From IMG/VR virus record IMGVR_UViG_3300032295_002579, positions 1-47,949 of that record: DNA of 47,949 bases; one strand, written 5' to 3'. The position numbers were made by a program, and so were the translations under genes. Every line of letters starts with the position of its first letter. Positions within the stretch are counted from its first letter, which is position 1. This document shows positions 1,232 through 40,785 of the stretch, in pieces. Origin of the DNA: a virus. Its lineage: Duplodnaviria > Caudoviricetes. The notes below the pieces were generated by a model. The model searched no databases and was not told the DNA's origin. It saw only the letters and a list, made by a program, of their open reading frames with translations.

Positions 1232-4200
1232 ATGATTTCATTGAGTAAAATTTTCAAAACCAACAAACTTTCGTATATACTTAGGGAAAGTAAAGAAGAC
1301 GACTTTACTGTAGACGCTCCTAAAGATTGGAACATAAATGACTTAAAAATAGGAGACACCATTGTGCCCAACATGTGGAATCTAGAAAGAATAGAACAAG
1401 CCATTTCACAAGACATGATATCATTTCCCAATTGGTTTGCTGAGCCCCACACAATAGAATCTTTTACACACCATGAAGACGTTGCTTTTACTGATGGCAC
1501 TAAGAGATCTTTATACTTTTTAAAAATATTTTTACAACCCCAATATCAAATAAACATAGACCCTTTAAATGAGTCTCAAGACGAATTCAATATAGACACT
1601 CCTAAAGGGTGGGACATTGGAGAATTGAAAGTTGGAGATAAACTTATTCCCGACATGTTTCAACCTAACACAAATTTATATGATTGGGCTTCTAGTTTTG
1701 ACCTAACTCTTAAAAAAATTGACTTTAGAAACAATAAAATAACTTATATTCTTACCTATGTTAATGGTGAAACAAACACAGGAAAATGGAATTTAGATTA
1801 TTTTGAAAAAGACTTAGCACCTGGTTATGAATTGAAAAGACCATCATTAAGTGAATCAGATGACGAGTTTACTGTAGACGTGCCTGAAAGAGAAGGTTGG
1901 GACGAAACTGAATTAAGAGCAGGACACTACTTCAACATGTCTACAAATCCTGACTTTAGTGGAGTTTGGAACAATTTAGAAGATGTTCCTAAAAGTATAC
2001 GACATTTCATCAAACAGGTTATATACATAGGACCTAATGTAGGTCAATATAAAAGCCCTGAATATAAAGATCACGTAAATATAATCGCTTACAATTTTCC
2101 AACAGATAAAGACAAAAAAGATAAACTTTACGCTATATCTTTTGAAGAATTCAATAAAAGATGGAACAAAATGATGAATGCTTCTGTATATAGTTATTTA
2201 GAAGAGTCTCAAGATGAATTTAATGTTGATGCTCCTTTAGACTGGGATGAATATGATGGAAATGTTATAATTACTTATGAAATAGAAAATGAAGGAGAAG
2301 TTTATGTTCCTGTAGCAGATGAAGAAGAATTTGAACGTTTAAATCCAAACATTAAAATAAATTATGGTACAGAACCAATTTATGTAGATACTACTTATAA
2401 ATCAAAATCTGTAAACATAAATGAACTTATAAAAGAATTAGAAAATTATTCTGATGAATTGCTTCCATTTACAGGACCTAAAACAACTGAAAATTTTAAA
2501 ACATGGATAGGAAATGATGATTATTATTTATCATATGCTTATCAATTTTTAGATCCAACAGAAATAGAAAATAAATATAAAACTGATGATCGTAAGCCTG
2601 TTAGAGTTACCAAAAAAATGAAAGAAAACATATATTGGCGTTATGATGATGATATCGTTGATATAAAAATTTTAGACGTTCAATTTATTGACAACATAAA
2701 TGAAAGTAAAGACGAGTTTGCAGTAGACGCTCCTAAAGATTGGAACGTTATTGAACTGACTGTAGGAGATGAGGTTACACCTGATATGTGGAAAGAAACG
2801 CCTGATTCTCCTAATTCAATTCTTCTGACTAGTTTTGTTAAAGGAGGTACTTACAACGATGATGATCTAGATGCTATTGTTTTAAAAATATCTGGAAGGG
2901 ACTATGAATCTAGATGGGAACTTAATTATATAAATAGTTTGTTAAAACCTGAATATCTAATAGTTCCACCTACTGATTTATATGAATCAGACGAATTTAC
3001 TGTAGACGCTCCTAAAGATTGGAATAAAATTGAATTAACAGTAGGAAGTCTTATTACTCCTGACATGTACACAGATGAAGCTGTAGAAAGATGGAATTAT
3101 TTATCTAATCAAAAAATGGGATCAAAAACATGGGGACAAAGTGTAGGTTATTTTTGGACAAAGCCTCAAACAATTTATAAAGTATTTCCTACTTATGATG
3201 GTAATTATGACTTAGAACTTGAAAGTGGTTTAACTTTATTAAGTAGTGACCTAAAAGATCAATATTCAATTGTTTCAAATATGTTTGAATCTGAAGATGA
3301 ATATAATGTAGACGCTCCTAAAGAATGGAATTTTAAAGAATTAGGCATAGGAGACTCAATTGTGTCTGGTATGTTTAAAAATCCAAGATCAAGTAAACGT
3401 TTTTGGATGCCTGGAGTATCTGAAATGATAATTACAGAATTTGATCCTCAAAGACAATGGTTAGTAAGAGTAATGCCTAAAGGAGGAAACATTAAAACAG
3501 ATTTAGAACCTTGGAACATTTATAGTGTCAATCAAGAATTAAAAGATCAATATAAAATAGTATTTCCTGAAGACTTAGTAGAATCTACAGACGAATTCAC
3601 TGTTGATGCTCCTCAAGATTGGAGTGTAATTGAATTAAAAGTAGGAGACACTATTACTCCTGACATATGGGAAAGAGATAATTTTATTCAAGAAACTGTT
3701 ACTATTGCAGATATATGGTATGAACCCGAAACTGAGGAAGACTATGGGGGTTATATAGTTCGTTTAAATTTCCCACATGGTAGAATATATGATCTTGATT
3801 TAGATATATTAAATGATAATTTAAAATATCCATACCAAATATTTTCACCATTAAATGAAAGTGATGAATTTAGTGTAGACGTTCCTCAAGGTTGGAATAT
3901 TAAAGAATTAGGCGTAGGTGATATTTTAAATAATACCAATATGGAAATATCAGATGTTAATTTTTCTTATAAAATTACTGATTTTAAGAAAAATGAATTT
4001 GGATCTGATTTGGTAGGTATAATTAAATATGAAGTAGATGACAATGGAGTAAAACAACAAAATAAAAAACCTAGTTATTGGTATGTTTCTATGGTAAATA
4101 AAAAATTAAAACCTGGATATCAAGTAGTTGTTCCTGAACCATTAAAAGAATCTGATGATGATTTCAATGTTACACCTGATGAAAGTTGGAATGTTACATA

Positions 4201-5158
4201 CTTACAAGTAGGAGACAAAATTACCTACGACATGCTTAGAGATGGTTCTACAGATAAACGGTGGTTTAGTAAAAATAAAGACGCTTACATTGAACTTGAA
4301 GATTTTAAAAATGGAATGTATACTGTTAGTCAATACAATCCAAAAGATAACTCATTTTCACGTTATCGAGTAGTTCCTGAATGGTTTAATAATAGTACAT
4401 TAGATCCTCAATATAAACTTGATGTTCCATTAGATAACCAAGTAAATATGTTTGGTTTAGATGAATCTGATGATGATTTTACAGTAGATGCTCCTAAAGA
4501 ATGGGGTATTGAAGGACTAACAGTTGGAGATACTTTAGATCCTTCTAATCTTAAAATGCAAAATTTTAGAAAAAAATATGAAATTTTAGGCTTTATACAA
4601 AGACCCTGGGGAAATGACGTAAGACTTGGAGTATATGAATTAGTAGAAGAACCAATACCTGGAACTAGAAGAACAAGTAAACAATGGAAACAGGTAAAAG
4701 TTTATTATGCTAGTTTAAAAGGTTTAGAAGATTTATTGAAACCTGGTTATGAAATAGTACCTAACACAATAGTAGAATCTGATGACGATTTTACAGTAGA
4801 TGCTCCTAAAGAATGGAATTTAAATTATGAACAACCTATTAATATTACTATATCATATGAAGAAGAAGTAAGAGATAGAACTGGAAAATATGGAGTTTTA
4901 CTGAAATCTTATTTTACACAAACTAATTTAACAGAATTAGAACAAATATCTGGTTATAATTTTCCATATGATGAATTAACTCCTTCCAATGTTCAAAAAT
5001 TTATAATAGATGATCAAGATTTACTAATAGAAATAGAAGACATGGCAGAAAATTCAAATATTGAAGTAATTGAATCATATAATGGTTTTGATTTTGATAA
5101 TTACCAAGTTAGAGGTCTAAATAATTTTTATGTAGATGTTGAACTTCCTGTGGCTTGA
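1232..5158 (+). CDS. 1308-aa modular repeat protein, 12 units; putative protease-processed polyprotein
   Basis: Twelve [LIM]xES-acidic-FxVDAPxxW-type boxes separated by divergent modules, unit length about 92-166 aa. Confidence 0.9.
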   Translation: MISLSKIFKTNKLSYILRESKEDDFTVDAPKDWNINDLKIGDTIVPNMWNLERIEQAISQDMISFPNWFAEPHTIESFTHHEDVAFTDGTKRSLYFLKIFLQPQYQINIDPLNESQDEFNIDTPKGWDIGELKVGDKLIPDMFQPNTNLYDWASSFDLTLKKIDFRNNKITYILTYVNGETNTGKWNLDYFEKDLAPGYELKRPSLSESDDEFTVDVPEREGWDETELRAGHYFNMSTNPDFSGVWNNLEDVPKSIRHFIKQVIYIGPNVGQYKSPEYKDHVNIIAYNFPTDKDKKDKLYAISFEEFNKRWNKMMNASVYSYLEESQDEFNVDAPLDWDEYDGNVIITYEIENEGEVYVPVADEEEFERLNPNIKINYGTEPIYVDTTYKSKSVNINELIKELENYSDELLPFTGPKTTENFKTWIGNDDYYLSYAYQFLDPTEIENKYKTDDRKPVRVTKKMKENIYWRYDDDIVDIKILDVQFIDNINESKDEFAVDAPKDWNVIELTVGDEVTPDMWKETPDSPNSILLTSFVKGGTYNDDDLDAIVLKISGRDYESRWELNYINSLLKPEYLIVPPTDLYESDEFTVDAPKDWNKIELTVGSLITPDMYTDEAVERWNYLSNQKMGSKTWGQSVGYFWTKPQTIYKVFPTYDGNYDLELESGLTLLSSDLKDQYSIVSNMFESEDEYNVDAPKEWNFKELGIGDSIVSGMFKNPRSSKRFWMPGVSEMIITEFDPQRQWLVRVMPKGGNIKTDLEPWNIYSVNQELKDQYKIVFPEDLVESTDEFTVDAPQDWSVIELKVGDTITPDIWERDNFIQETVTIADIWYEPETEEDYGGYIVRLNFPHGRIYDLDLDILNDNLKYPYQIFSPLNESDEFSVDVPQGWNIKELGVGDILNNTNMEISDVNFSYKITDFKKNEFGSDLVGIIKYEVDDNGVKQQNKKPSYWYVSMVNKKLKPGYQVVVPEPLKESDDDFNVTPDESWNVTYLQVGDKITYDMLRDGSTDKRWFSKNKDAYIELEDFKNGMYTVSQYNPKDNSFSRYRVVPEWFNNSTLDPQYKLDVPLDNQVNMFGLDESDDDFTVDAPKEWGIEGLTVGDTLDPSNLKMQNFRKKYEILGFIQRPWGNDVRLGVYELVEEPIPGTRRTSKQWKQVKVYYASLKGLEDLLKPGYEIVPNTIVESDDDFTVDAPKEWNLNYEQPINITISYEEEVRDRTGKYGVLLKSYFTQTNLTELEQISGYNFPYDELTPSNVQKFIIDDQDLLIEIEDMAENSNIEVIESYNGFDFDNYQVRGLNNFYVDVELPVA

Positions 5159-5882: not shown

Positions 5883-7268
5883 ATGATTAAGTTAAAAGAT
5901 CTATTGTTAGAAGCTCCTGCTAAACCCGCTCCTGCTCCTGCTAAACCTGAAAGATCTACAGAACCTGATGTAGCTCCTGGAAGACCTGCTAAACCTCAAC
6001 CTAGAAGAAGATCAGTTCCTTCACCTGAAACTAGTCCTACTCCAGCACCTAAAGCAGAAAAACAGCAAGGTAAAAAAGAACCTGCTCATCAAGCTCCCAA
6101 AGACAAAGACAAACAAGGACCTTCTTCAGTTAACGAAGAAAGCGATGTAATGAAAAAAATTGTAGATCGTTACATGAAAGCTTTCAATAAATTAAGTGAA
6201 GCTGAATATGAAAAAATATTTGATCCTGAAACTTTAGGTAAATTAAAAGGGAGTGTTGCTCAAAGATTACAAGGAAAAAATCCAATGCAGATTGCAGGTA
6301 CTATGCAACAACTAGCTATGCAAGTAATGCAGTTAGAAAAAGGAAATGAAGACTTGTTAGAACAATTAGCTTATGATGTTGTATATGAAGCTTATCCTTA
6401 TTTAAAAAACAATGAAGATGTTATTGAAATAGATGCTAAAATTGTTCCTCAAAATCAAGTTAAAGATGCTTTAAAAAAAGATGAAGAAGATGAAGTGTGT
6501 TTAGCTTGTATGAGAAAAGAAGAAGAACAAGAAATGAAAGATGATATCTTAGCTGATTTAAAGAAAAGAAGACTAATAAATGCTATTACTCAGGGTGGTT
6601 CAACATTTAGTAAAACTGCTCATTATTTAAAACAAGAATATATCGATATTATTGGTGGAGAAGGAACTTCTGATAAATACAGAGATTTAATGCAAGCTTC
6701 TCTTGATATAATTGATTTTATAACTATGATGGCTGGCTCAGGTATGCCTGGTGGTGGAGCTGGAGGTGGAGGTATGGAAGATAGTGCTGTTGGAGCTGAA
6801 ACAGTTTTTTATGATTTTGAAAAAGAAAAATGGATTATCAAAGCAAGAGCTGTTTGTTTTCCTGTTTTAGTTTTAGAAATTGTTAAAGGAATGTATGAAA
6901 TCATTAGTTTATTTGGATTTAGTGATTTAGAAAGAGGAGAAAAAGTAGTTAGTAATGTAGATAAAATAGAAAATGAACCTACTGATATTGCTTATGGACA
7001 AATGATTACTAAAAATCTTTTTGATTTAATCAATAAATTAGAATCAAATGTTACACCTGATGAAAGAGACGACTTTTTACAAGACATTTATAAATTATCT
7101 AACGAAGAATTTATTAAATTAATTACTAACGTTATTAATAATAAGGTTGATACCAATCAAATGAATATGTTGAAAGGTAAATTTTCTCAAATGCGTCAAG
7201 ATAAAACAGCAGATGATGCTGATAATGCTTTATTTGAAAGATGGGCTAGAATAGCTGGGTTGAGATAA
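5883..7268 (+). CDS. Hypothetical protein with MIKLKDLLLE leader and Pro-rich N-terminus, probable head protein
   Basis: 461-aa ORF; class L motif at 5861-5869; ends ERWARIAGLR. Confidence 0.8.
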   Translation: MIKLKDLLLEAPAKPAPAPAKPERSTEPDVAPGRPAKPQPRRRSVPSPETSPTPAPKAEKQQGKKEPAHQAPKDKDKQGPSSVNEESDVMKKIVDRYMKAFNKLSEAEYEKIFDPETLGKLKGSVAQRLQGKNPMQIAGTMQQLAMQVMQLEKGNEDLLEQLAYDVVYEAYPYLKNNEDVIEIDAKIVPQNQVKDALKKDEEDEVCLACMRKEEEQEMKDDILADLKKRRLINAITQGGSTFSKTAHYLKQEYIDIIGGEGTSDKYRDLMQASLDIIDFITMMAGSGMPGGGAGGGGMEDSAVGAETVFYDFEKEKWIIKARAVCFPVLVLEIVKGMYEIISLFGFSDLERGEKVVSNVDKIENEPTDIAYGQMITKNLFDLINKLESNVTPDERDDFLQDIYKLSNEEFIKLITNVINNKVDTNQMNMLKGKFSQMRQDKTADDADNALFERWARIAGLR

Positions 7269-25290: not shown

Positions 25291-25676
25291 TGACTAGTAG
25301 TTTATACATATCAAATATTCAATTTAAAAATAGTTATACACTATATGAACAAAATATGATTTGTAGAGTAAAAGACTATGAATTTAATACTAGTTACAAT
25401 CCAACTTTATCAACAGGTTCTGTAGGATTTATTTATGAATCAGCTTCTCTTTGGATTACTTCTTCTACTTTACCTTACAATTACACTGGAACTTATTATA
25501 CTTATCCTGATAACCAATTAAAAGACTTTGCAACGGCTAGTTATTTTAGTCCTTATGTAGGATCAATAGGTTTTTACAACGACTCAAATCAACTTTTAGC
25601 TGTAGCCAAAATGTCACAACCTGTTCCTTTATCAAACGAAACAGACATAACATTTATAGTTAAACTAGACTGGTAA
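25290..25676 (+). CDS. Structural protein: C-terminal part of a paralog of 23243
   Basis: CRVKDYEFNTSYNPT and IGFYNDSNQLLAVAKMSQP...VKLDW match the C-terminus of 23243. Confidence 0.7.
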   Translation: MTSSLYISNIQFKNSYTLYEQNMICRVKDYEFNTSYNPTLSTGSVGFIYESASLWITSSTLPYNYTGTYYTYPDNQLKDFATASYFSPYVGSIGFYNDSNQLLAVAKMSQPVPLSNETDITFIVKLDW

Positions 25677-26161
25677 TGAATACAATCAACAACATGTGGT
25701 ACTCATTTAAAAATGAGGGCATAAAATACTACACAGAATTAACAGATTTTCCTGAAAATACTTATGGATTCATTTATAAAATTACTCATTCTGAATCAAA
25801 ACAGTATTACATAGGAAAAAAAGTACTTTACAACACAACTAATGTTAAATTAGGAAAAAAAGAATTATTAAATTTACCTACTCAAAGAGGTAAAAAACCT
25901 TCAACTAAACAAATAATAAAAGAAAGCAATTGGCGTAATTATTATGGCAGCAATAAAGACTTTTTAGAATACATCAAAGCTGAAGGAGAAAATAATTTTA
26001 AAAAAGAAATACTTCATATTTGTCAAAATAAATTAGAATTAACTTATTGGGAAACTCATTATTTATTTATAAACAACGTTTTATTTGATGAATTAAGCTA
26101 CAACAGTAATATTTTAGGAAAATTTTATAAAGGAAAACTAATATTATTAGATCAATCATAA
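25676..26161 (+). CDS. GIY-YIG family nuclease
   Basis: YGFIYKITH...YYIGKK, YYGS, conserved E and terminal YN. Confidence 0.75.
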   Translation: MNTINNMWYSFKNEGIKYYTELTDFPENTYGFIYKITHSESKQYYIGKKVLYNTTNVKLGKKELLNLPTQRGKKPSTKQIIKESNWRNYYGSNKDFLEYIKAEGENNFKKEILHICQNKLELTYWETHYLFINNVLFDELSYNSNILGKFYKGKLILLDQS

Positions 26162-27907: not shown

Positions 27908-27920
27908 CATATTTATTGTT

Positions 27921-28760
27921 ATGATATCTCTGCGTTCTATGTTATTAGAAGTGTATGGTAGTCCTAAAGCTATCATTTTGTCAGGCGCAGCTGGAATAGG
28001 CAAATCAACTTTTGCTGATCTTTTAACTCCTTACATTCCTTCTAACTTTAAAGTTTTTAATCCTGATACTTTTAATCCTGAAGATGATCCTAACAAACCT
28101 AATATATCTAAAAATTCAAAAATAATTAGAACTCAAGCTATTCCTGGAGCTATAAACAACAAAGAAAGTTTTATTTATGACACTACAGGACAAAATTTTG
28201 AAGAAACAGCAAAAATTATTTTGGATGCTCAAAAAGCAGGTTATAAAGTAATGGTAATTATGTTTTATGGAAGTCCTATTATTAATTTTTTAAGAAATTT
28301 TAGTAGAAGTCGTAAGCTGCCTAAAGATGTAGTATTAGACAACTGGGCTAAAGTTTACAGAAACATACAAAACTACAAAAACGTACCAGGAATTGAGTAT
28401 CTTTTAGTTCAAACTGAACTTAGTCCTGCTGAAAAAAAAGAAGCAGCAAGATTTGAAGGAGCACTTAAATCAAAAGAAATAGAAGAATATTTTAAAAATT
28501 TAATAGCAACCGATCCTGATAGATTTAAGTCTAGTTTTAGCAAACCTAAAGACTCAGGAATAGAAAAAGCTGAAGACTTGCCTGATCCTGAAACTTTAAA
28601 AGCTAGAGAAGAAAAAAAGAAAGCAGCTGAAAAGAAATTTAGTGATACTATTAAAAATTTAAAAGATCAATTTAAAGAAGTAGAAAAATACTTAAAAATA
28701 ATAAAACCAGTAGACTATAAAACAGCAATAGGAGCAGTAAAAACATTTGCTAAACCATGA
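27921..28760 (+). CDS. P-loop kinase (zeta-toxin/polynucleotide-kinase-like) with MISLRSMLLE leader
   Basis: Walker A GAAGIGKST, FIYDTTG, RNFSRSR lid; class L motif 27908-27916. Confidence 0.75.
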   Translation: MISLRSMLLEVYGSPKAIILSGAAGIGKSTFADLLTPYIPSNFKVFNPDTFNPEDDPNKPNISKNSKIIRTQAIPGAINNKESFIYDTTGQNFEETAKIILDAQKAGYKVMVIMFYGSPIINFLRNFSRSRKLPKDVVLDNWAKVYRNIQNYKNVPGIEYLLVQTELSPAEKKEAARFEGALKSKEIEEYFKNLIATDPDRFKSSFSKPKDSGIEKAEDLPDPETLKAREEKKKAAEKKFSDTIKNLKDQFKEVEKYLKIIKPVDYKTAIGAVKTFAKP

Positions 28761-31700
28761 TAGACGTAAAAGAAATAGGAAAACAAATAGGAGAACAAAT
28801 AGTTAAAGAACCAATGATGTGTTGGTACCCTGGAGGGTTTAAGCCACCTCATAAAGGTCACTTTGCTGCAGCTCAACAATTAGCATCTAAACCTTATATT
28901 ACTCAAGTTAATGTATTGATAGGCCAAGGTATTAGAGACGGAATTACTGCTGAGCAAAGTAAAGCTATTTGGGACATTTATTTAAAAGCACAACCTAATC
29001 CTAAAATTAAAGTTGCAATTTCACAAACTAAATCGCCTATTAGAGACATTTATAGATGGTTTGCCGATGATTTGGAAAGAAAAGCATATGTAGCTGCTGC
29101 TGGAAAAGAAGCTACTGATTTAAAATACTTTGAAAATTTAAAAGAAGCTTTTGGAGACAGAGTATTTGAAGAAATAATTAATGATGAATTTGTAGACCAA
29201 GATGGAGAACGAGTTAGTGGAACTGAATTTAGAGCTACTATAAATCGTTTAAAAGAAACATATAATGCCGTTAAAGCTAATCCTGAAGATAAAAGAGCTT
29301 TAAATGATTATAATACTACTTACAATTATTTTAAGTCTTTATTCCCAGAATCTGTTATTCAAAAAGGTTACTTTGATGAAATTCAAAAGGTACTAGGAAT
29401 AAATTACCCTCCTCCTACTTCATTACAAGAAGACTCTCAACCCAATCCTAAAAATCAGCCTAAATGGGTTTGGTTAGAATATAAAAATAAAGAAAAATTA
29501 AATCCTTTAATATTTGATGAAGACGAAACAATAGACGAAAAAGTAAAAGAATTATTGTTAAAGATTGCTAATTATTTTTGGGAAAATTTAGAAATTCCTG
29601 AACCTTTTGAAGACGTTGTTTTAATAGGAAGTAGTGCTAATTACAATTATACTCCTACATCAGACATAGATGTACATATTATTGTTGATTTTAATAAATT
29701 TAAAGATCCTGAATTAGTTAAGAAGTATTTTGATAAAGCTAAAGCCAATTGGAATAAAGTACATGATTTAAAATTAGGAAAACACAATATAGAGTTATAT
29801 GTTCAAGATAAAAATGAAGAAAAAACAGCAGATGCTGGAATTTATTCATTAATGAATGATAAGTGGATTTATAAACCAACTTATAAACCAATAAATATTC
29901 CCAACAAAGACATAGAACAAAAAACAAAATTATTTAAACAACAAATAAATAAACTTGTAAAGCAAGGCAAAGACAACCCTGAAAAATCAATAGAACTTAT
30001 AAATAAAATAAAAGAACGCATTAAAAACTTTAGACAAGCAGGACTAGATAAGGCTGGTGAATATTCTATAGAGAATTTAGCGTTTAAAAACTTAAGAAAC
30101 ACAGGTTATCTTAAAAAATTGAGTGACTTAAAAAATCAATTGATAGATAAATCACTTTCTTTAACAGAATCTATTGATAAAAATTCTCTGTTTAACAATT
30201 TTATGTCTTATGCTTGTAATGAACTACAAATTCAAACACCGCCTACCCTCGAAATCAAACACATGGTGGGAGAAGAACAGCCCTCTTTTGGTGCTTATCT
30301 TCCCTCTGACCATCATATTTTTCTTAATCCTATTGGCAGAAATATTGTTGATGTACTCCGGACATTAGCTCATGAATTGGTTCATGCCAAACAAAATGAA
30401 TTAGGAATACTTACACCTACTTCAGGTGAAACTGGTAGTGAACATGAAAATGATGCTAATGCTATTGCAGGTATTTTAATGAGAGATTATGGAAAACAAA
30501 ATCCCGACATTTATAATATTGGAGTGTTACAAGAACAAGTTACAAAAACTTCTGTAATTTGTGATAAATGTGGCTGGTCTTGGAAGAAAAAAGATGGCGG
30601 TAAAGATTTATATGTTTGTCATAAATGTGGACATGATAATAATCCTAAATTAAATGAAGTAAAAAAAAACTTAAATGAAAATGTTGCAGGAATTGATAAT
30701 TTTTTAAATAAAACAATTCAAAAATTTCCTGAAACAGAAAAATACAAAGATACTATTGAAAAATTTATAGAATCATCAGGCGTAAAAAAAATTGAACTTA
30801 GCAATTTTAGTTTTGGTTATGATAATGCTTTAGGTTTATCATTACATGATGGAGTTTTATTAAACAATAAAATATTTAATTTAAATTTACCTACATTTTT
30901 ATATGTAGTATTTCATGAACTTGCTCATCAATATCAATTTAAAAAGTATGGAGATGACAAAATGTATGATTTATATAGAGGAAAAATTGATGTTAAAGAA
31001 GCAGCAGCTGCTATGAAAAATATTGAATTAATAGCTGATGAATTTGCTGTAAGAAAAATAAGAGAATTTATTAAATTAGGTCTGTTAAATAAAGAAGATG
31101 AAATAAAAAACCCAGTTTATAAAAATATTCCTTTATCTCATTTTGAACAATTGATTAATTTATTTGCTAAAAAATTAAAAACAAAAGGAGCTAAAAATCC
31201 AGATGAAATATCTGATGTTATTTATAATACGGTTAAGGCAAATCTTATTAAAAATGTTTTTGATAAAATTAAAGGAATGTTACAAGAATCTAAAAAAGAC
31301 AAACAACAAATAACAAGAATTTATTTTGATTTAGATGGTGTATTAGCAGGATTTGATAATCAGTTTAAAAAATATAATAAAGATGGTTTAGATTTTAAAT
31401 CATACATTAGAGAACATGGTAGTAATAAAGCATGGGACATAATTAATAAAGCAAAAACTAAATTTTGGTCTGAAATGCCTTGGAATCCTGGAGGAAAAGA
31501 ATTATACAATCGTGTTATGGAACTTGCTAAAGAAAAAAACATAGAAGTATGGATTTTATCAAGTCCTGGTTTAGATCCAAATGGAGATGCTAAAAAGGGT
31601 AAAGATGAGTGGGTAGATAAACACTTAAACATTCCTAAAAATAGAAGAGTATATAAACAAGCTAAAGACAAACACACAGAAGCAAAACCAGGTTACATGT

Positions 31701-31822
31701 TGATTGATGATATGGGTAAAAATGTTAGTGAATTTATAAATGCTGGTGGAACTGGCATAAAAAACAACCCAGAAGACTCAACTGAATCAATAAAAAAGTT
31801 ATATAAATTTAAATATGAGTAA
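28757..31822 (+). CDS. Multi-enzyme protein: HxGH cytidylyltransferase-like, Pol-beta-type nucleotidyltransferase, HExxH, Zn ribbon, second HExxH, HAD 5'-nucleotidase-like
   Basis: PGGFKPPHKGH; GSSANYNYTPTSDIDVH; LAHELVH; CDKC/CHKC; FHELAH; FDLDGVL...LIDD. Confidence 0.85.
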   Translation: MIDVKEIGKQIGEQIVKEPMMCWYPGGFKPPHKGHFAAAQQLASKPYITQVNVLIGQGIRDGITAEQSKAIWDIYLKAQPNPKIKVAISQTKSPIRDIYRWFADDLERKAYVAAAGKEATDLKYFENLKEAFGDRVFEEIINDEFVDQDGERVSGTEFRATINRLKETYNAVKANPEDKRALNDYNTTYNYFKSLFPESVIQKGYFDEIQKVLGINYPPPTSLQEDSQPNPKNQPKWVWLEYKNKEKLNPLIFDEDETIDEKVKELLLKIANYFWENLEIPEPFEDVVLIGSSANYNYTPTSDIDVHIIVDFNKFKDPELVKKYFDKAKANWNKVHDLKLGKHNIELYVQDKNEEKTADAGIYSLMNDKWIYKPTYKPINIPNKDIEQKTKLFKQQINKLVKQGKDNPEKSIELINKIKERIKNFRQAGLDKAGEYSIENLAFKNLRNTGYLKKLSDLKNQLIDKSLSLTESIDKNSLFNNFMSYACNELQIQTPPTLEIKHMVGEEQPSFGAYLPSDHHIFLNPIGRNIVDVLRTLAHELVHAKQNELGILTPTSGETGSEHENDANAIAGILMRDYGKQNPDIYNIGVLQEQVTKTSVICDKCGWSWKKKDGGKDLYVCHKCGHDNNPKLNEVKKNLNENVAGIDNFLNKTIQKFPETEKYKDTIEKFIESSGVKKIELSNFSFGYDNALGLSLHDGVLLNNKIFNLNLPTFLYVVFHELAHQYQFKKYGDDKMYDLYRGKIDVKEAAAAMKNIELIADEFAVRKIREFIKLGLLNKEDEIKNPVYKNIPLSHFEQLINLFAKKLKTKGAKNPDEISDVIYNTVKANLIKNVFDKIKGMLQESKKDKQQITRIYFDLDGVLAGFDNQFKKYNKDGLDFKSYIREHGSNKAWDIINKAKTKFWSEMPWNPGGKELYNRVMELAKEKNIEVWILSSPGLDPNGDAKKGKDEWVDKHLNIPKNRRVYKQAKDKHTEAKPGYMLIDDMGKNVSEFINAGGTGIKNNPEDSTESIKKLYKFKYE

Positions 31823-33712: not shown

Positions 33713-35466
33713 TGAATATTAAAACTTTTCAAAAAATCTTTGATGAAGAATATCAAAAATTCCGTACCCAAAAGGAAACGGATAAAGCCTTTATTGAAAA
33801 GTTCAACACAGAAACCGACAAACCTGTTCCTACTTTTGAAGAAGATCCAATAGGATACATTTTATACAGTTATCCTACATTAAAAGAATACTTAGAAAAA
33901 CTTTTAACTAAAGACTTTTTAGACTATGTAACAGGTATTTACGTAATTGCTCCTATTCCTACTACTTTCAAAATTATATTACATAACAACCAGTTTTTTT
34001 ACATGATTTATATGGGAAGAACTTGGATGGCTAAAGTGTCTGGAAAAAAATACTACTTATTAAATGTAGGTGAAAGAGGAAGAGCAACAGAAGCTATAGC
34101 TCGTTTATTAGCTATGGGAGCTCCATTAGGATTAGCACCTTCTGGTGAAGCTTCAGAAAGCGCAACAACAGAAGTTCCGTTACCTTCAGAAGGAAGTAAT
34201 CCTTTTGCTAGTGCTGAAGCAGGAACAGAAACTCCACCAGCTGGAGAAGGCGCACCACCCTCTGAAGGTGGAGGAGCTCCTTTAACAGAATCAAAAAAAA
34301 AAGTCTTATTAGAAATAGGTAAAAAATATCCTATTGCTTTTCGTATTGCTTTAAAACAAATTTTATTATTGGAAGGTTCTATAAATCAAAACAGTGCTAA
34401 AGTAGTTCAAAGAATTTTAAGTTCTGAAGAAAATAAAGAATATGGATTTACTCCAATGACTAAATCTTCAAGAGTAGCTAATCCTAATAAAATTCCAACA
34501 GAACAATTTTTAGATTTACTGCAAAAATTATATCCAGAAGCTGACATTAAAATTATTCCGCCTAAAACAGGTATAAATCAAAAACCTTTTGGCAGTAGTA
34601 AATTTCCAATGTATAGTTTTGACACAGAATATGGTCCTGTAGGCATTATTTTAGCGTCAGGAATGAATAAAGGTGAAAAATACGAAAAAGAATTTGTAGA
34701 AAAAATGAAAGCTAATGTTGGTAAAAAAATTACTGACATAAAAGACGAAGAATTAGTACAACTTTACGATTATTTAGAAATAGATCCGTCAGCTTTAACA
34801 GAAAAAGACATAATACCTGCTGGAAAAACAGACACAAAAAGATCTATTAATTTCGATAAACCTGAAGACATTGGAAATAAAATAGCTGACATAATTATTA
34901 AATACAGTGGGCAAGATTACAACATTTCTTTAAAAGATCCTAAAGGAGACTACATTTATAATGGAGGAAATGTTAAATTTATAAAACAAAATAAAGAAGG
35001 CGGCATTTATTTTGATGAAGAAGCCTTTATTAAAGACAATAGTCCCATTAAACAAATATTTGAAGTAACAGGCATTAATCCTCAAAGAATAGCTGAAGGA
35101 TTAGAAAACTATGTTAAAAAAGAAGGTTTACCTTCACAATGGGAAACAATACAAGATTATGATGGCATTAAACTTGAAAAAATGTTAGCATCAAGTTATG
35201 GATATGGTTATTATTATGTAAGACAAGTAAAACCTGGCGAACTTTTAATAAAAGACATTAACAGTGAAGACGATATAACACAGTTAATAGGAGAAGTTAA
35301 ATCAGTTAAAGTAAAATATCCTAGCATTGCTAGTAAGTCTTGTGAAGCCAGAGTAGAAACTAATAGTCCTGAAGGAGGACAAAATACTTATCAAATAGAC
35401 ATAAGAAATTCAGCTGGAGGTATATTACCTTCAATAAAAGTTAAATCAATAGGAACTAAACAATGA
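33712..35466 (+). CDS. Two-part protein; C-terminal part resembles a restriction-endonuclease-like PD-(D/E)XK fold
   Basis: P/E/G-rich linker ending in LTES; GEKYE...IADIII...NISLK. Confidence 0.55.
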   Translation: MNIKTFQKIFDEEYQKFRTQKETDKAFIEKFNTETDKPVPTFEEDPIGYILYSYPTLKEYLEKLLTKDFLDYVTGIYVIAPIPTTFKIILHNNQFFYMIYMGRTWMAKVSGKKYYLLNVGERGRATEAIARLLAMGAPLGLAPSGEASESATTEVPLPSEGSNPFASAEAGTETPPAGEGAPPSEGGGAPLTESKKKVLLEIGKKYPIAFRIALKQILLLEGSINQNSAKVVQRILSSEENKEYGFTPMTKSSRVANPNKIPTEQFLDLLQKLYPEADIKIIPPKTGINQKPFGSSKFPMYSFDTEYGPVGIILASGMNKGEKYEKEFVEKMKANVGKKITDIKDEELVQLYDYLEIDPSALTEKDIIPAGKTDTKRSINFDKPEDIGNKIADIIIKYSGQDYNISLKDPKGDYIYNGGNVKFIKQNKEGGIYFDEEAFIKDNSPIKQIFEVTGINPQRIAEGLENYVKKEGLPSQWETIQDYDGIKLEKMLASSYGYGYYYVRQVKPGELLIKDINSEDDITQLIGEVKSVKVKYPSIASKSCEARVETNSPEGGQNTYQIDIRNSAGGILPSIKVKSIGTKQ

Positions 35467-36143
35467 TAAAATTAAGCAACTTACTATTAGAAGACACAAA
35501 TTGTTCTAATTGCAGTAGACCTAAAGCACCTTTACTAGTAGAATCAACAAAATCAACAAGTTTGTCAGAACACATGTTGTATCATGTGTACAACAAGTTG
35601 CCTTTAGTAGAAAATACTTTTAGATATAACAGTGAAGCATTTTTAAATTTATGGCAAGAAGCTCGTTGGTTACACGAAAACAAACAAGTAAAATTTCAAG
35701 GAACTGACGAAGAATTGTTGAATGAAACTGACTTAGGTCGTTTTGATTTTTATCAAGGCGAATTAGTTCCTTTAGATCTTTTATTAGAAGATGAATCAAT
35801 GGGAGCAGCCGAAGTAAACTCTATTACAGATGACCCTATAACAGAAAAAACAAAAACTGACAAAAAACAACCAGCTTTAGGAAAACCTAAACGTGGCGGT
35901 GCTAAAAAGTTCTATGTTTATGTAAAAGATCCTAAAACTAAAAGAATAAAAAAAGTAAGTTTTGGTATGGCTGGAGGCGGTTTAAGAGCTAAATTAAACA
36001 ATCCAAAAGCACGTCAAGCTTTTGCTAAAAGACACAATTGTGCTCAAGCTAAAGACAGAACAACGGCTCGTTACTGGTCATGTCGTCTTCCAAGGTATGC
36101 GCGTCTGTTAGGATTTAAAACCACTTTTAGCGGTTATTGGTAA
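35463..36143 (+). CDS. Hypothetical protein with MIKLSNLLLE leader and basic C-terminal domain
   Basis: KKFYVYVK...KKVSFG...RHNC...YWSC. Confidence 0.75.
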   Translation: MIKLSNLLLEDTNCSNCSRPKAPLLVESTKSTSLSEHMLYHVYNKLPLVENTFRYNSEAFLNLWQEARWLHENKQVKFQGTDEELLNETDLGRFDFYQGELVPLDLLLEDESMGAAEVNSITDDPITEKTKTDKKQPALGKPKRGGAKKFYVYVKDPKTKRIKKVSFGMAGGGLRAKLNNPKARQAFAKRHNCAQAKDRTTARYWSCRLPRYARLLGFKTTFSGYW

Positions 36144-36162
36144 TATTTATAATTATAGTACC

Positions 36163-37065
36163 ATGGACAAAAAAATTTTACTAAAGAAAATTTTATCAGA
36201 AGCTGTCAAGAGAAATCTTGAAGAAATGCCTCAAATACAAAGATTCTACACATTAACTGACGATTGGGAAGAAAAAGCTGAAGGTTTAAGATCTTTAGGT
36301 GGCATTAAAGTTCAAGATGCTATTTTAAAATTAGAGTCTATGGAAGACATGAATTACTTCACAAGAAGTGACATTCAACAAGTTTTTAAATTTGCTAGAC
36401 CTCAAGGCGCTAATAATTTTATTAAAACTCTTCTTCAACAAGGTGTTATTATGCCTGTAAGTGGTGCTAAAGTACAAGCTAAAAACTTAGGTGTAGATAG
36501 TGATGCTGATGACGAATTTAATGTTTCTGCTTTACCTGGACTAGACATTTCTCAAGGAATTGACTTAGAAAGTGCTTTGTCTAAAATTAAAATTGAAAAA
36601 AATACTCCTTGGTTTAATTTTATAATTAGAAAAACATATAAAGTTGAATTGCCTAGAGAAGAACAAAGAAAACTAGCAGTACAATATGGATCTTTAGCAA
36701 AAGGTTTATATGAAAAATACGGAGTTATGACTTATAATGTGCATGAAATACATTATAAAACAACACCTTACAGATTTTTAAAACCTTTTTTAGAAAAGAA
36801 ACACTACAAACAAATTCCTAGTGATGAACCTATTGTAATTAAAAGAGGAACATGGCAAGAACCGTCAACAAAATACAAAATAACTGATTTATTTCCTACT
36901 GTAGACGATTTTGAAAGATTTGTTGAAAATAATCCTAGAAGTTTTCAAATAAAATCAAAGCCAGCCAATTTTGATGAAATGGTTAGTAAAATAGAAAGTG
37001 ATGGTGGCACATTAGTTCTAACAAAAGAACAAAATGGAATTACCACTAATAATTACTTATCATGA
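36163..37065 (+). CDS. Hypothetical protein
   Basis: 300 aa; class L motif 36142-36150; ILSE and NLEE near N-terminus. Confidence 0.75.
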   Translation: MDKKILLKKILSEAVKRNLEEMPQIQRFYTLTDDWEEKAEGLRSLGGIKVQDAILKLESMEDMNYFTRSDIQQVFKFARPQGANNFIKTLLQQGVIMPVSGAKVQAKNLGVDSDADDEFNVSALPGLDISQGIDLESALSKIKIEKNTPWFNFIIRKTYKVELPREEQRKLAVQYGSLAKGLYEKYGVMTYNVHEIHYKTTPYRFLKPFLEKKHYKQIPSDEPIVIKRGTWQEPSTKYKITDLFPTVDDFERFVENNPRSFQIKSKPANFDEMVSKIESDGGTLVLTKEQNGITTNNYLS

Positions 37066-37787
37066 TTAAACTAACTAGTATAGTACATGAAATATTACAA
37101 GAAGATCGCTGTAAACGCATAGCAGATCGTCGTTATTCTAAACCTTCTGCTTATAAATCAGGTGCTATTGTTAGATGTCGTAAAGGTAAAATTTGGAAGG
37201 GGTTAAAAGAAGACATAGATCCTAAAGAAGCATATAATGCTACTAGTTCTTTACAAACTATTATAGACAACAAAAGAAATGTTGGTTATATTGTATTAGA
37301 TGAAATAAACAGTCCTAAAACTTTTTGGGAAATAATAGAAGAAAACAATTTAAAAAGTTTAAAAGTAAAATCAAAAGACAATCATGATGTTTACATAATC
37401 CACAGACCCGGTTATGAAAAAGACGCTGAAGAATTAAAAAATTTAGCTGAAAAATATGGAGGATATTTATCTATTAACGCTACTGATGATGAAACAAGAA
37501 GAATAGGTGAATTATTGGGTTATAAAAAAGAAGCTATAGATAGTTTTATTGAAAAAAGAAAAAACTTAAACGAAGCTAAAAAAGAAACACTTCGTACTTG
37601 GTTTAAAAGAAAAGGAGCACCTGGAAAAACAGGAGGTTGGGTAGATTGTAATACTTGTCGAAATGGTAAATGTAAACCTTGTGGTAGACAAAAAGGAGAA
37701 ACTAGAGCTAAATACCCATCATGTAGACCAACACCCAGCCAGTGTAAAAGACCAGGTAAAGGCAAAACTTGGGGCAAAACAAAATAA
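37062..37787 (+). CDS. Three-module protein with MIKL leader and basic Cys-rich ends
   Basis: Modules delimited by ILQE, GLKE and NLNE. Confidence 0.75.
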   Translation: MIKLTSIVHEILQEDRCKRIADRRYSKPSAYKSGAIVRCRKGKIWKGLKEDIDPKEAYNATSSLQTIIDNKRNVGYIVLDEINSPKTFWEIIEENNLKSLKVKSKDNHDVYIIHRPGYEKDAEELKNLAEKYGGYLSINATDDETRRIGELLGYKKEAIDSFIEKRKNLNEAKKETLRTWFKRKGAPGKTGGWVDCNTCRNGKCKPCGRQKGETRAKYPSCRPTPSQCKRPGKGKTWGKTK

Positions 37788-37804
37788 TAAAAATAACTAA
37801 AACA

Positions 37805-38200
37805 ATGAATATATTAGTAACTAAACAAAATAACATGGAACAATTTGCAAAATTGATATCGTTCTTATTTCATTCTAGAACTCAAGCACATATTTTTCAT
37901 TTACAAACAACTTCATTTGCTGAACATAAAGCATTAAATGATTATTATGACAATATCATTGATTTAGTAGATGGACTAGTAGAATCTTACCAGGGTAAAT
38001 ATGGTATTTTAAAAGGATACTCAAGCTATCCTAATTTAGAATACACTGACAAAAATAGAGTAATTATGTATTTTGAAGCTTTAGTAGAAAAAGTTTGTGC
38101 TTTAAGAGATTCTGTAACAGATTCGTATCTCCAAAACCAAATAGATACTGTTATGGAATTGTTAGAGTCTACTTTGTATAAACTAAAATGCTTAAGTTAA
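37805..38200 (+). CDS. Ferritin/Dps-like four-helix protein
   Basis: AHIFHLQT-SFAEHKALNDYYD...DGLVESYQG; start uncertain (ATG 37805 or 37835). Confidence 0.65.
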   Translation: MNILVTKQNNMEQFAKLISFLFHSRTQAHIFHLQTTSFAEHKALNDYYDNIIDLVDGLVESYQGKYGILKGYSSYPNLEYTDKNRVIMYFEALVEKVCALRDSVTDSYLQNQIDTVMELLESTLYKLKCLS

Positions 38201-38547
38201 TAGACATATTAAATACTATACTAGTAGAAAATGATCCTAAAGTAGGAACAGGTAAAAAACCTAAAGGATCAGGTCGTAGATTATACACAGATGAAAACCC
38301 TAAAGACACAGTTAAAGTTAAATTTAAAACAGTTCAAGACATAAAAAATACTTTATCTAAAGCCTCTTTTAAATCTAAATCACATGCCCGCCAGTCTCAA
38401 ATTATTAATTTAATTCACCAACGAGTAAGAGCAGCTTATAATAAAGCAAAAAATCCAGATGTAAAAGCAAGATTAAAACATGGTTTAGCTTACATTACTA
38501 AAAGAAAAGAAGCATCTAAAGAAAAAACTAAACGTTTAAATAAATGA
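38188..38547 (+). CDS. Basic hypothetical protein with MLKLIDIL...LVE leader
   Basis: 119 aa, K/R-rich. Confidence 0.75.
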   Translation: MLKLIDILNTILVENDPKVGTGKKPKGSGRRLYTDENPKDTVKVKFKTVQDIKNTLSKASFKSKSHARQSQIINLIHQRVRAAYNKAKNPDVKARLKHGLAYITKRKEASKEKTKRLNK

Positions 38548-38579
38548 TTAAATTAAAAGACATATTATTAGAAGCTAAA
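38526..38579 (+). repeat. 54-bp direct repeat, copy 1 (copy 2 at 39445-39498)
   Basis: AACTAAACGTTTAAATAAATGATwAAATTAAAAGACATATTAnnnGAAGCTAAA, 50/54 identical. Confidence 0.9.
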
Positions 38580-39434
38580 CAAGTAGGCAATTTATACCAC
38601 TTTACCTCAATATTAAACATATTTAATATTTTAAAAACCCAACATCTTCTTCCAAATACTGAAAATCAAATATCTACATCCCGTTCTTCTTCTCTAAATG
38701 TTTCCTCTTTTCAAGATGATAAATCAGATACACCTCAATGTCGTTTAATGCTTGATGGTGATAAAATAAGTAATAAATATAAAATTCAACCTTTTAAACA
38801 CTTTCCCGATGAAGAATCTTTTGAAGAACAAATAATTGTAAATGGTAAACCTTTTTATTTTTTACCTTATTTAAAAAGAATAGACATCTTTACAGGGAAT
38901 TCTATAAAAAATAAAGGAATAAAATTAATCCCTAAACTTGTAAAAGAATTAGAAATATTAAATATACCTTATAAAATATATACTACATCTACTACTAATC
39001 AAAATTCATATCTTCAACCAAAAACAGGTAATCCATCAAACATTAATTTTCCTAAAAAAGTTGAAATACTTACTTTAGAAGATCTCTATTACCCGGGAAT
39101 GAAATTAAAAAATATAACAACATATCGTAAATCAATTTCTGATTCAGGATATATTCCTTATTTAGAAAAAGTAGCAGAATCTCCAAAATATCCTGGATAT
39201 TATATAAAAACAGGATTTATGAGATATGCTGATGAACTAGATAAATATTATATCCATTATAATAAAAATGGACAAAAAATAAAAGGTATTAAAATGGTAC
39301 CTATACCTTTTTTAAATGATAAATCTTGGTTATCTAAATTTAAATATTTAGATAATGTTTACACAAAAAAATTTACTCCTGGCACTCATCCTGATGCTTA
39401 TCTCCTTATACCTAAAAATGAAGTAAATATTTAA
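38544..39434 (+). CDS. Protein with MIKLKDILLE leader, possible ADP-ribosyltransferase-like fold
   Basis: LYHFTS...ISTSRS...ESFEEQI arrangement. Confidence 0.5.
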   Translation: MIKLKDILLEAKQVGNLYHFTSILNIFNILKTQHLLPNTENQISTSRSSSLNVSSFQDDKSDTPQCRLMLDGDKISNKYKIQPFKHFPDEESFEEQIIVNGKPFYFLPYLKRIDIFTGNSIKNKGIKLIPKLVKELEILNIPYKIYTTSTTNQNSYLQPKTGNPSNINFPKKVEILTLEDLYYPGMKLKNITTYRKSISDSGYIPYLEKVAESPKYPGYYIKTGFMRYADELDKYYIHYNKNGQKIKGIKMVPIPFLNDKSWLSKFKYLDNVYTKKFTPGTHPDAYLLIPKNEVNI

Positions 39435-39444
39435 TTATAAAAAT

Positions 39445-39498
39445 AACTAAACGTTTAAATAAATGATAAAATTAAAAGACATATTAAGTGAAGCTAAA
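39445..39498 (+). repeat. 54-bp direct repeat, copy 2
   Basis: See 38526-38579. Confidence 0.9.
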
Positions 39499-39783
39499 AC
39501 AAAGTTTGAAGACTTTAGTGAAGCTCGCATGAATGGAGCTAAAAAAATAGCAGATAATGCACACGAAAAAGGAGGATTTGCTTTATTAACGTGGCATCAT
39601 TTTAAAGTTAAATTACCATATTATAAAAAAGCTACTGAAGGTAAATTAGACTTTGAAGAAGCTAAAAAAGAATTTGATGAAACTTATAAAAAAATTTCTT
39701 TAAATATGGATCAAATTGAATTTCAAAGAGAAGTAGGTCGTTTAGAAGTTTTAGGTGAGTTAATTATAAAAAATAAAAAATAA
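39463..39783 (+). CDS. Hypothetical protein with MIKLKDILSE leader
   Basis: 106-aa ORF. Confidence 0.75.
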   Translation: MIKLKDILSEAKTKFEDFSEARMNGAKKIADNAHEKGGFALLTWHHFKVKLPYYKKATEGKLDFEEAKKEFDETYKKISLNMDQIEFQREVGRLEVLGELIIKNKK

Positions 39784-39785
39784 AT

Positions 39786-40223
39786 ATGGATAACTTTAAT
39801 TTAAGAAAATATTTAGCTGAAGGTAAATTATATGAAGCTGCTATGGCTTGTCCATTACCTACCCAAAATTTAGAACTCAATACTAAAAACAGAGACTCAG
39901 CTATTAAAGCTGATTACATTAAATATGGTCCTTTAAATGTTGATGAACCAGGAAATTATTGGGAAGAATTAGCAGAACACTGGAACACAACAGTAGAAGC
40001 TGCTCAACAATCTTTATGTGCTAATTGTGCTGCATTTGACATTTCTCCAAGAATGGAAGATTGTATGCCTGGCCCAATATCAGATAATGATGGTAGACTA
40101 GGATACTGTTGGATGCACAGTTTTAAATGTCATTCAGCTCGTACTTGTAGAACGTGGGCTAAAGGTGGTCCTATAGTTAAAGATAGTATATCTTATGAGT
40201 GGCAAGAGCGCAAAGAAAGATGA
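39786..40223 (+). CDS. Cys-rich hypothetical protein with MDNFNLRKYLAE leader
   Basis: CANC...GYCWMHSFKCHSARTCRTW. Confidence 0.75.
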   Translation: MDNFNLRKYLAEGKLYEAAMACPLPTQNLELNTKNRDSAIKADYIKYGPLNVDEPGNYWEELAEHWNTTVEAAQQSLCANCAAFDISPRMEDCMPGPISDNDGRLGYCWMHSFKCHSARTCRTWAKGGPIVKDSISYEWQERKER

Positions 40224-40480: not shown

Positions 40481-40514
40481 TATTTTATAAAAATAATCAT
40501 ATTTATTACCAGCT

Positions 40515-40784: not shown

Positions 40785-40785
40785 A

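Follow-up and report, generated by a model that had tools for sequence, protein, structure and literature searches.

A 47,949-bp window of viral DNA (the whole of the IMG/VR contig IMGVR_UViG_3300032295_002579, a fragment with a CheckV completeness of 29%) from a phage of fresh water whose head is of the T4 type contains a polyprotein gene in which six modules are joined at the tripeptide motif L-x-E. The modules are, in this order, an NMNAT-like domain, a Pol-beta nucleotidyltransferase (NTase), a first HExxH domain (HExxH-1), a CxxC-CxxC zinc ribbon, a second HExxH domain (HExxH-2) and an NT5C-HAD nucleotidase. The motif is conserved at the joints, homologues exchange cassettes there, neighbouring and stand-alone genes carry similar leaders, and the lineage encodes a protease of the T4 gp21 type. 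We infer that the polyprotein would be expressed late, targeted, cleaved, packaged and injected and would have roles in the cell, and consider it fairly probable that it is capsid-targeted cargo that would be cut by the prohead protease at each joint and whose pieces would be injected together with the DNA.

Six modules in one open frame

An earlier note made on this DNA from its letters alone had described a six-domain chain in one open reading frame (ORF), and this description is borne out by the frame, by sequence motifs and by profile and Foldseek matches (Table 1). The Glu codons that it had assigned to the joints are all correct (E225 at 29429, E471 at 30167, E593 at 30533, E634 at 30656, E641 at 30677 and E844 at 31286), and a 1021-residue protein with 98% identity to the polyprotein (P0003) is encoded on another contig. 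Ahead of the first module lies a leader, MIDVKEIGKQIGE, for which AlphaFold2 predicts a helix at residues 4–16 and which has the length and the ending of T4 cargo leaders, defined as propeptides of approximately 10–19 residues ending in L/I-x-E (PMC9026906).

For structural comparison, the query to Foldseek was the full-length model, and among the matches listed only those to the NT5C and NMNAT parts are named. The NMNAT-like module matched NadD/NMNAT structures (E 1.6e-3 to 1.6e-2, target TM-scores 0.52–0.61); its score against Pfam CTP_transf_like was 15.8 bits (E 0.017), below the cut-off of 21. Because this score is under the curated cut-off, the substrate may be NMN or another. The Pol-beta-type module contains the GS...DxD motif GSSANYNYTPTSDIDVH and reached 22.9 bits against Pfam NTP_transf_2 (cut-off 21). 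Residues 424–454 of this module (30026–30118) are the most invariant stretch family-wide; they come just after an [IL]-K-E at residues 418–420, and a low-confidence loop is modelled at 426–436. The NT5C module has its DxDG motif as FDLDG at residues 857–861, matched the 5'(3')-deoxyribonucleotidases mdN/cdN in Foldseek (E 5e-5 to 1e-3) and fell narrowly under the cut-off of Pfam NT5C (22.2 bits versus 24.8).

In both HExxH modules, the zincin motifs (the HExxH helix and a downstream Glu) are invariant and every Pfam zincin family is below its cut-off. For HExxH-1, in which H539, E540, H543 and E564 are invariant with distant lineages included, Pfam gave DUF6782 below cut-off in seven of nine members and PF18818 (MPTase-PolyVal) at E 0.16 in two of the nine; its profile had no match in PDB under E 0.1, and the whole polyprotein matched no PDB sequence. 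The profile of HExxH-2 (A3) matched proabylysin (4jiu; E 6.4e-4), and Pfam SprT-like was matched in 10 of 13 members, each time with a score under the cut-off.

Placement and conservation of L-x-E at the joints

The earlier note had placed L-x-E at each domain junction. This placement holds at the five joints, where the motif is also conserved; the number of sites is not above that predicted from composition (eight observed versus ~6.3 expected) and is in itself not unusual. Six of the eight sites lie at the five joints, and in an alignment of 46 homologue rows (A1) the motif is nearly invariant at most of these (Table 1). The two remaining sites, at residues 128–130 and 165–167, sit inside confident AlphaFold2 helices (124–135 and 155–174) and are poorly kept, in 27 and 6 of 45 rows, respectively. 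We conclude that the non-random feature of L-x-E is where it stands and how well it is conserved, not how often it occurs.

The borders of the domains agree with these positions. The phrog_36119 match ends, and the NT5C match starts (at approximately residue 847), next to the motif; the predicted local distance difference test score (pLDDT) drops below 50 at joints 1–3 in stretches that are each flanked by confident domains; and the confident part of the NT5C model begins at approximately residue 850, directly past E844. Stable contacts between domains, which the earlier note had also proposed to look for, are absent from the model (mean pLDDT 68.9; predicted template modelling score, pTM, 0.33), in which the domains have no fixed mutual arrangement.

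These data bear on an alternative in which the polyprotein is an uncut multidomain enzyme, cytoplasmic or in the virion, and the L-x-E linkers are not cleaved, being either scars left by leaders when genes fused or conserved recombination joints. A neutral scar would decay, but the Leu and Glu of joints are kept in 45 of 45 and 45 of 46 rows though the surrounding residues vary, and the low pTM of the model, with domains free of fixed contacts, likewise speaks against a single multidomain enzyme.

Cassettes are exchanged at the joints

The set of homologues comprised the best 120 of 270 matches (579–1319 residues, the shortest probably being truncated at contig ends), each of which was split at every L-x-E, and the pieces were clustered. 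The N-terminal 58–62% of the polyprotein is common to the homologues, in which NMNAT, NTase and HExxH-1 form a fixed core and variable cassettes lie between this core and NT5C. In the whole proteins tabulated, NT5C is always the last module and HExxH-1 is present in essentially all. The 120 homologues differ by the insertion, loss or reordering of at least ten more cassettes, with breakpoints at the joint Glu. For example, P0091 has the 66+57-residue cassette between NMNAT and NTase, but P0027, P0029 and P0041 have it before NT5C; the zinc ribbon is preceded by HExxH-1 in P0005 and by cassettes of 127 and 117 residues in P0021 and P0095, respectively. Pieces at either side have a constant length regardless of the adjacent cassette and, therefore, the breakpoints are not elsewhere than at the joints; at joint 3, divergence according to the next cassette begins right after ...IY.IG[VM]L[NKQ]E. 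Every incoming cassette brings the motif or preserves it, which is a further argument against uncleaved scars.

Breakpoints of BLAST homology fall within two residues of L-x-E in 219 of 1166 cases, compared with 51.5 on average and 73 at most for random positions (200 draws) and with 14–58 for seven control tripeptides. When 12 close pairs were fitted with a single indel, the breakpoint was at most three residues from a joint Glu in nine; three of the 12 pairs (P0023/P0090, P0025/P0041 and P0096/P0094) are not describable as one indel. P0004, with 98% identity to the polyprotein, has 246 extra residues (two cassettes) within residues 630–634, before the VKKNLNE spacer; P0091 has a 160-residue insertion at residues 224–226 (joint 1); and the polyprotein of G006, a syntenic relative described below, is a 768-residue form that lacks exactly residues 595–839. 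The modules thus occur in other orders within polyproteins, a possibility that the earlier note had proposed to check, and their breakpoints are at the joints.

The gene is present in lake and freshwater metagenomes from 12 studies; no RNA run is listed among the sequencing runs that contain it. In two of the four runs compared (X5 and X8), metagenome contigs stop or start matching at 30649/30650, where the codons of joint 4a begin, and continue with other cassette or linker sequence; in X8 the unlike sequence translates as the end of the 142-residue cassette of P0004; joints with sides of 21–24 letters were disregarded as unreliable. The breaks represent population-level variation at joint 4a.

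When 23 cassette pieces were compared by BLAST with all ORFs of the window and G006, matches at E 1e-3 were restricted to the polyprotein genes, and no stand-alone copies were found. Among nine long homologues searched against Pfam, no variable cassette received a family name except DUF5661. Cassettes with a DG.HR motif (P0023 residues 592–716, P0021 594–720 and P0095 596–712) had no Pfam match; this motif may be related to the DGxHR motif of ParB-like nucleases.

Leaders on neighbouring and stand-alone genes

Short leaders ending in L-x-E stand at the start of eight more genes in the window (Table 1), and their orthologues in the 176-kb genome of G006 retain these leaders. A strict pattern, M[IL][KSTND][LFV]..[ILMF][ILVF].E, has six matches in the six frames of the window, all of them at ORF starts. 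The kinase encoded immediately upstream of the polyprotein may be further cargo.

The units of the 1308-residue repeat protein start with S(D/E)DEF.VDAPKDW and are spaced approximately 91–203 residues apart (mostly ~100), and each follows [LIM]-x-E-S, in agreement with the claim of the earlier note that the same motif separates them. The protein has no match in Pfam or PHROGs, its G006 orthologue is 1537 residues long, and it may be a tandem internal-protein polyprotein.

Stand-alone homologues with leaders, for which the earlier note had suggested a search, exist for three modules (HExxH-2, NT5C and the cassette encoded by the gene at 38188). First, among 80 related IMG/VR loci the match spans HExxH-2 alone in 41; these are mostly stand-alone genes, with internal cassettes in L010 and L021. 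Eleven of the 12 stand-alone HExxH-2 genes aligned have a leader of 10–22 residues with an [LIV]-x-E aligned to E641, the exception being L016. Second, the cultured Flavobacterium phage vB_FspM_immuto (hereafter immuto), which is the nearest cultured relative found by the G006 capsid protein (49% identity), has a separate NT5C gene that starts with MKKVMGNLADLLLE directly before the domain, and it also encodes a 907-residue homologue. Third, the product of the gene at 38188 has 77% identity over 88 residues to residues 215–302 of a 682-residue polyprotein of another phage (L075; E 2e-38), in which this cassette is bordered by I-K-E and L-N-E.

Distant stand-alone NT5C proteins have no leader and start 4–9 residues before DxDG and, therefore, the leader on NT5C is lineage-specific and maintained. 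The 16-residue tail past HExxH-2, NLIKNVFDKIKGMLQE, has no counterpart in stand-alone HExxH-2 homologues and looks like the retained leader of the NT5C unit. More generally, the linkers look like retained leaders of once-separate leader-cargo genes, and the polyprotein is best seen as head-to-tail concatenated leader-cargo units in which the junction codons double as recombination points.

The same likeness would be expected of an uncut enzyme with scars at its joints: the end of the HExxH-2 tail (KIKGMLQE, followed by SKK) resembles the start of the immuto NT5C gene (MKKVMGNLADLLLE, followed by ESD) as a linker would resemble the leader of its downstream module. The gene also sits amid replication and nucleotide-metabolism genes, and NMNAT and nucleotidase are described as ordinary phage metabolic genes (PMC9503650). 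Set against this are the conservation of the joints, the motif in incoming cassettes and an extra NT5C leader that distant homologues do without, and we regard the uncut enzyme as unlikely.

A second shared N-terminus, MDNFNFKKYLVE / MDNFNLRKYLAE / MDNFDLKKFLIE, is found in genes at 615–1022 (−) and 39786–40223 (+) and at 148605–149090 of G006. It ends in L-x-E at residue ~10–12 and may represent another class of leader.

A gp21-type prohead protease in the lineage

T4 gp21 cleaves after the Glu of L/I-X-E, and the capsid-targeting leaders of T4 internal proteins have 10–19 residues, with residues 8 and 10 as the determinants of processing in IPIII, as described in PMC9026906; in T4, an Asp in place of the Glu at the cleavage position prevents processing (PMC9026906). 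The residues at positions 8 and 10 of MIKLKDILLE are Leu and Glu, respectively. The syntenic relative G006 (176,311 bp, CheckV 100% complete; gp6-like baseplate protein 82% and polyprotein 76% identical) encodes a Peptidase_S77 protein (E 4e-32) that matches phrog_207 and has 33% identity to T4 gp21 over 168 residues. Its head module also contains a terminase, a portal, an acidic scaffold-like protein of 466 residues with 26 [LI]-x-E sites and a gp23-like capsid protein (E 1e-29 versus T4 gp23), in the N-terminus of which L-L-E occurs three times and I-V-E immediately precedes the conserved TN..AG.TSG block. Peptidase_S77 is also encoded by immuto, by the T4-like cyanophage S-CREM2 and by three out of five further large contigs bearing homologous modules.

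On the reading that we favour, in which the polyprotein is capsid-targeted cargo, it would be made late, alongside the structural proteins, and its 13-residue leader would guide it to the prohead's scaffolding core. There, a serine prohead protease of the T4 gp21 type would cut after each joint Glu, where the short, flexible linkers end in (L/I/M)-x-Glu. Six pieces would be released (an NMNAT-like enzyme, a Pol-beta nucleotidyltransferase, two zincin-like domains, a small zinc ribbon and a 5'-nucleotidase), and these would be injected with the DNA and be active ahead of any phage gene expression, with resynthesis of NAD+ and manipulation of nucleotides or defence signals as plausible early roles.

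We also considered that the chain could be a polyvalent protein cut by its own embedded zincin-like HExxH-1 and/or HExxH-2 before, during or after delivery, with the prohead protease uninvolved. Self-processing by zincin domains has been predicted for polyvalent proteins (Iyer et al. 2017, PMC5512222), and it would fit the near-universal presence of HExxH-1 in the whole proteins tabulated, the invariance of its H-E-x-x-H and downstream Glu even in distant lineages, and the match of HExxH-2 to the minigluzincin proabylysin. Nevertheless, the eight leader-bearing genes and the 1308-residue repeat protein use the same (L/I/M)-x-E motif and none carries HExxH and, therefore, a trans-acting enzyme is required anyway. 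Moreover, neither HExxH module attains a curated Pfam cut-off, their assignment as zincins being made by motifs and sub-threshold matches. We know of no zincin with a specificity for Glu at P1 after L/I-x. For gp21-type proteases, this specificity is documented (PMC9026906). Together, these arguments make self-cleavage quite improbable.

Virion evidence from S-CREM2 and points that weigh against cleavage and packaging

Homologues of the first two modules have been detected in virions of S-CREM2, in which ORF154, ORF155 and ORF156 are among 52 proteins identified by mass spectrometry in CsCl-purified virions (PMC10665884). The same paper annotates ORF154 as a cytidylyltransferase, calls it an NMNAT homologue and refers to NMNAT-like proteins reported in virions of three other cyanomyoviruses (PMC10665884). 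In our comparisons, ORF156 has 36% identity to the NTase module (E 5e-46), and ORF154 starts with the leader MKNFSSFLTE and has weak similarity to the NMNAT module (E 0.004). For immuto, none of the literature titles listed points to a virion proteome.

Several observations count against processing by a prohead protease and delivery with the capsid. The authors of the S-CREM2 study caution that non-structural proteins, if abundant, may be carried along when virions are purified (PMC10665884), and neither a cleavage product nor a virion protein of the present phage has been observed. The protease is known from relatives only; a search of the window for Peptidase_S77 yielded no protease gene, an absence that is uninformative in a window that is 29% complete. 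The polyprotein gene adjoins primase and exonuclease genes and lies outside the head module.

Other such points concern the leaders. MIDVKEIGKQIGE is unlike the MIKL-type leaders, homologous polyproteins of three other lineages (L064, L061 and L077) are leaderless and start at the NMNAT domain, and three stand-alone HExxH-2 homologues (L032, L042 and L043) are leaderless as well. Stand-alone NTase homologues (L036, L038, L039, L045, L047–L050, L052–L055 and L079) have no clear L-x-E leader and start with MNNFQKIL.., MSN.QKIL.. or MAISKKII... We looked for a depletion of L/I-x-E inside leader-bearing proteins and saw no clear trend. Finally, 44 of 46 rows have the [IL]-K-E at residues 418–420, inside the NTase module, where cutting would split the domain; and the low pLDDT near joints 4 and 5 is uninformative, the entire HExxH-2 cassette being poorly modelled because only two rows of A1 contain it.

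Gene context and a candidate promoter motif

The window has a G+C content of approximately 29%, and almost every gene is on the plus strand. PHROGs identifies a T4-like baseplate wedge (phrog_261, phrog_43 and phrog_219) as well as a primase and an exonuclease. A short motif, ATATTTAT, stands before the kinase-polyprotein gene pair and has 19 plus-strand copies, of which 12 are placed 12–28 nt upstream of ORF starts (~0.7 expected). The ORFs that follow include baseplate and fibre-like genes, the repeat polyprotein, the gene at 5883 and the kinase-polyprotein pair. From this placement, we suggest that ATATTTAT is a candidate late promoter element, and its sharing would fit co-expression of the polyprotein with structural genes.

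Three further features of the window were recorded. The gene at 25676–26161 (+) matches phrog_447 (label 'NAD synthetase', E 6e-28) as well as families of homing endonucleases; the gene at 37769–38200 (+) matches a Dps-like family of starvation-inducible regulators (phrog_858, E 1.4e-25); and 562 nt at 40224–40785, between the cluster of leader genes and the fibre-like genes, are without an ORF of at least 100 residues.

Table 1 Features of the polyprotein and of the window (positions in the 47,949-bp window; residues in the 1021-residue polyprotein; rows refer to alignment A1)
Feature	Position	Strand	Remarks
Polyprotein ORF, 1021 residues	28757..31822 (stop codon included)	+	One open frame
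N-terminal leader MIDVKEIGKQIGE, residues 1–13, ends I-G-E	28757..28795	+	I-x-E (residues 11–13) in 44/45 rows
NMNAT-like HIGH-motif nucleotidyltransferase module, residues 14–225 (domain ~20–220)	28796..29431	+	PPHKGH at 30–35
Joint 1, L223-Q-E225	29423..29431	+	L-x-E in 45/45 rows; pLDDT <50 at 225–244
Pol-beta-type nucleotidyltransferase module, residues 226–471 (domain 240–469)	29432..30169	+	phrog_36119 E 1.9e-48
Joint 2, L469-T-E471	30161..30169	+	L-x-E in 45/46 rows; pLDDT <50 at 464–475; phrog_36119 ends at residue 469
HExxH-1 module, zincin-like, residues 472–593	30170..30535	+	HELVH at 539
Joint 3, L591-Q-E593	30527..30535	+	[LIM]-x-E in 34/37 rows; pLDDT <50 at 591–597; indel breakpoints here
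CxxC-CxxC zinc-ribbon cassette, residues 594–634 (41 residues; CxxC...CxxC ~601–625)	30536..30658	+	Read from sequence
Joint 4a, L-N-E ending at E634	30650..30658	+	End of zinc-ribbon cassette
Spacer VKKNLNE, 7 residues	30659..30679	+	Ends at joint 4b; Glu is E641
Joint 4b, L639-N-E641	Last codons of 30659..30679	+	End of spacer VKKNLNE
HExxH-2 module, minigluzincin/SprT-like, residues 642–844	30680..31288	+	HELAH at 720; 16-residue tail ends M-L-Q-E
Joint 5, M-L-Q-E ending at E844	31280..31288	+	L-x-E in 20/21 rows
NT5C/HAD 5'(3')-deoxyribonucleotidase-like module, residues 845–1021 (domain 849–1014)	31289..31819	+	phrog_2643 E 1.1e-22
Variable cassettes of homologues			Zinc ribbon 41 residues; others ~104, 117–126, 127, 142, 147, 155–157 and 141–183 residues; 66+57 residues
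DUF5661 cassette of homologues			60–89 residues; between NMNAT and NTase; Pfam
Zeta-toxin-family P-loop kinase, leader MISLRSMLLE	27921..28760	+	PF06414 E 1.6e-12, above cut-off; 4-base overlap with polyprotein start
Repeat polyprotein, 1308 residues, longer leader MISLSKIFKTNKLSYILRE	1232..5158	+	11 DEF.VDAP-type core motifs by pattern
Leader-bearing gene, MIKLKDLLLE	5883..7268	+	
Leader-bearing gene, MIKLSNLLLE	35463..36143	+	
Leader-bearing gene, MIKLTSIVHE	37062..37787	+	
Stand-alone gene, longer leader MLKLIDILNTILVE	38188..38547	+	Internal cassette in L075 polyprotein of another phage
Leader-bearing gene, MIKLKDILLE	38544..39434	+	
Leader-bearing gene, MIKLKDILSE	39463..39783	+	
ATATTTAT motif	27909..27916	+	12 nt before kinase-polyprotein gene pair
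Other ATATTTAT copies so placed	1219, 5862, 9880, 13277, 16046, 22550, 32393, 36143, 44039, 45940, 46939	+	

Implications and comparison with known systems

The earlier note had proposed a protease-processed virion payload, and every computational check that it suggested came out in favour of this reading. If the polyprotein is indeed cut and packaged, one gene would load at least six pre-made activities that are delivered at DNA entry. An NAD+-making enzyme among the pieces could pre-empt host defences that deplete NAD+, cassette exchange at protease sites would give evolution a simple way of varying the injected arsenal, and the arrangement would naturally suggest how several foreign proteins could be loaded into T4-type capsids from a single construct. 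The model makes a prediction that can be checked in cultured immuto and S-CREM2, namely neo-N-termini right after defined Glu residues. As a wider and more tentative proposal, to which we would give slightly less than an even chance, T4-type phages of lakes and the sea may run an open plug-in cargo system in which a leader of 10–20 residues with the head-protease site at its end could bring any protein into the capsid, leader-cargo units are concatenated and reshuffled at junction codons and a pre-made arsenal is injected in fixed stoichiometry. In that case, the polyprotein would be a phage counterpart of the polyproteins of RNA viruses, yet one cut by the protease of capsid maturation. The contents of this arsenal are proposed jointly with the system and just as tentatively; they could comprise NAD+ resynthesis, nucleotidyl transfer, a nucleotidase, zincin peptidases, a kinase, and nuclease-like and unknown cassettes.

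In the literature, as far as the sources drawn on extend, capsid targeting in T4 and the concept of polyvalent proteins are found separately, and none of these sources joins the two via a junction motif. Within the same bounds, the combination of a prohead-protease motif at every domain border, concatenated leader-cargo units and cassette exchange at the joints was not found in print. The polyprotein resembles polyvalent proteins as portrayed in PMC5512222 in its disparate domains, with interspersed HExxH domains that may be zincin-like and with Pol-beta NTase and nucleotide-metabolism domains, and in the predicted delivery with DNA and proteolytic release of domains; here, six disparate modules stand in one chain, and a portal and a terminase are encoded in G006. 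It differs in that processing of polyvalent proteins is predicted to be carried out by the embedded metallopeptidase, unlike in the reading that we favour, and the portions of PMC5512222 concerned describe neither a junction motif nor a link to the prohead protease nor cassette exchange at joints.

A second comparison is with ejection and inner-body proteins of the giant phages phiKZ, 201phi2-1 and SPN3US, many of which are cut after Glu past a short motif, some multiply, by a prohead protease related to gp21 (PMC9026906, PMC7411985, PMC10052503). These cuts remove propeptides, and the accounts concerned do not describe the proteins as enzyme chains with a site at every domain border. The S-CREM2 genes come close in a different manner: in ORF154–156, an NMNAT-type gene with a 10-residue leader ending in L-T-E is followed by the NTase-homologue gene, in the order of modules 1 and 2. 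They are separate genes and not a polyprotein, and the study, in the portions relevant here, reports virion detection only, cleavage lying outside its scope (PMC10665884).

The closest parallel is with IPI, IPII, IPIII and Alt of T4, which likewise have a leader of 10–19 residues that ends in L/I-x-E, residue 8 being Leu or Ile and residue 10 Glu (PMC9026906). In both systems an S77 protease is present in the lineage and unrelated cargos share the leader, and host-modifying enzymes are among the T4 cargo (PMC9026906). In sequence, no similarity to the internal proteins of T4 is seen, and the leaders differ (MIKLKDILLE and MIDVKEIGKQIGE here). Moreover, T4 cargo consists of single modules with one N-terminal cut, to which Alt adds a C-terminal cut (PMC9026906), whereas the chains described here have up to a dozen modules, with the motif at each joint and with cassettes shuffled among relatives.

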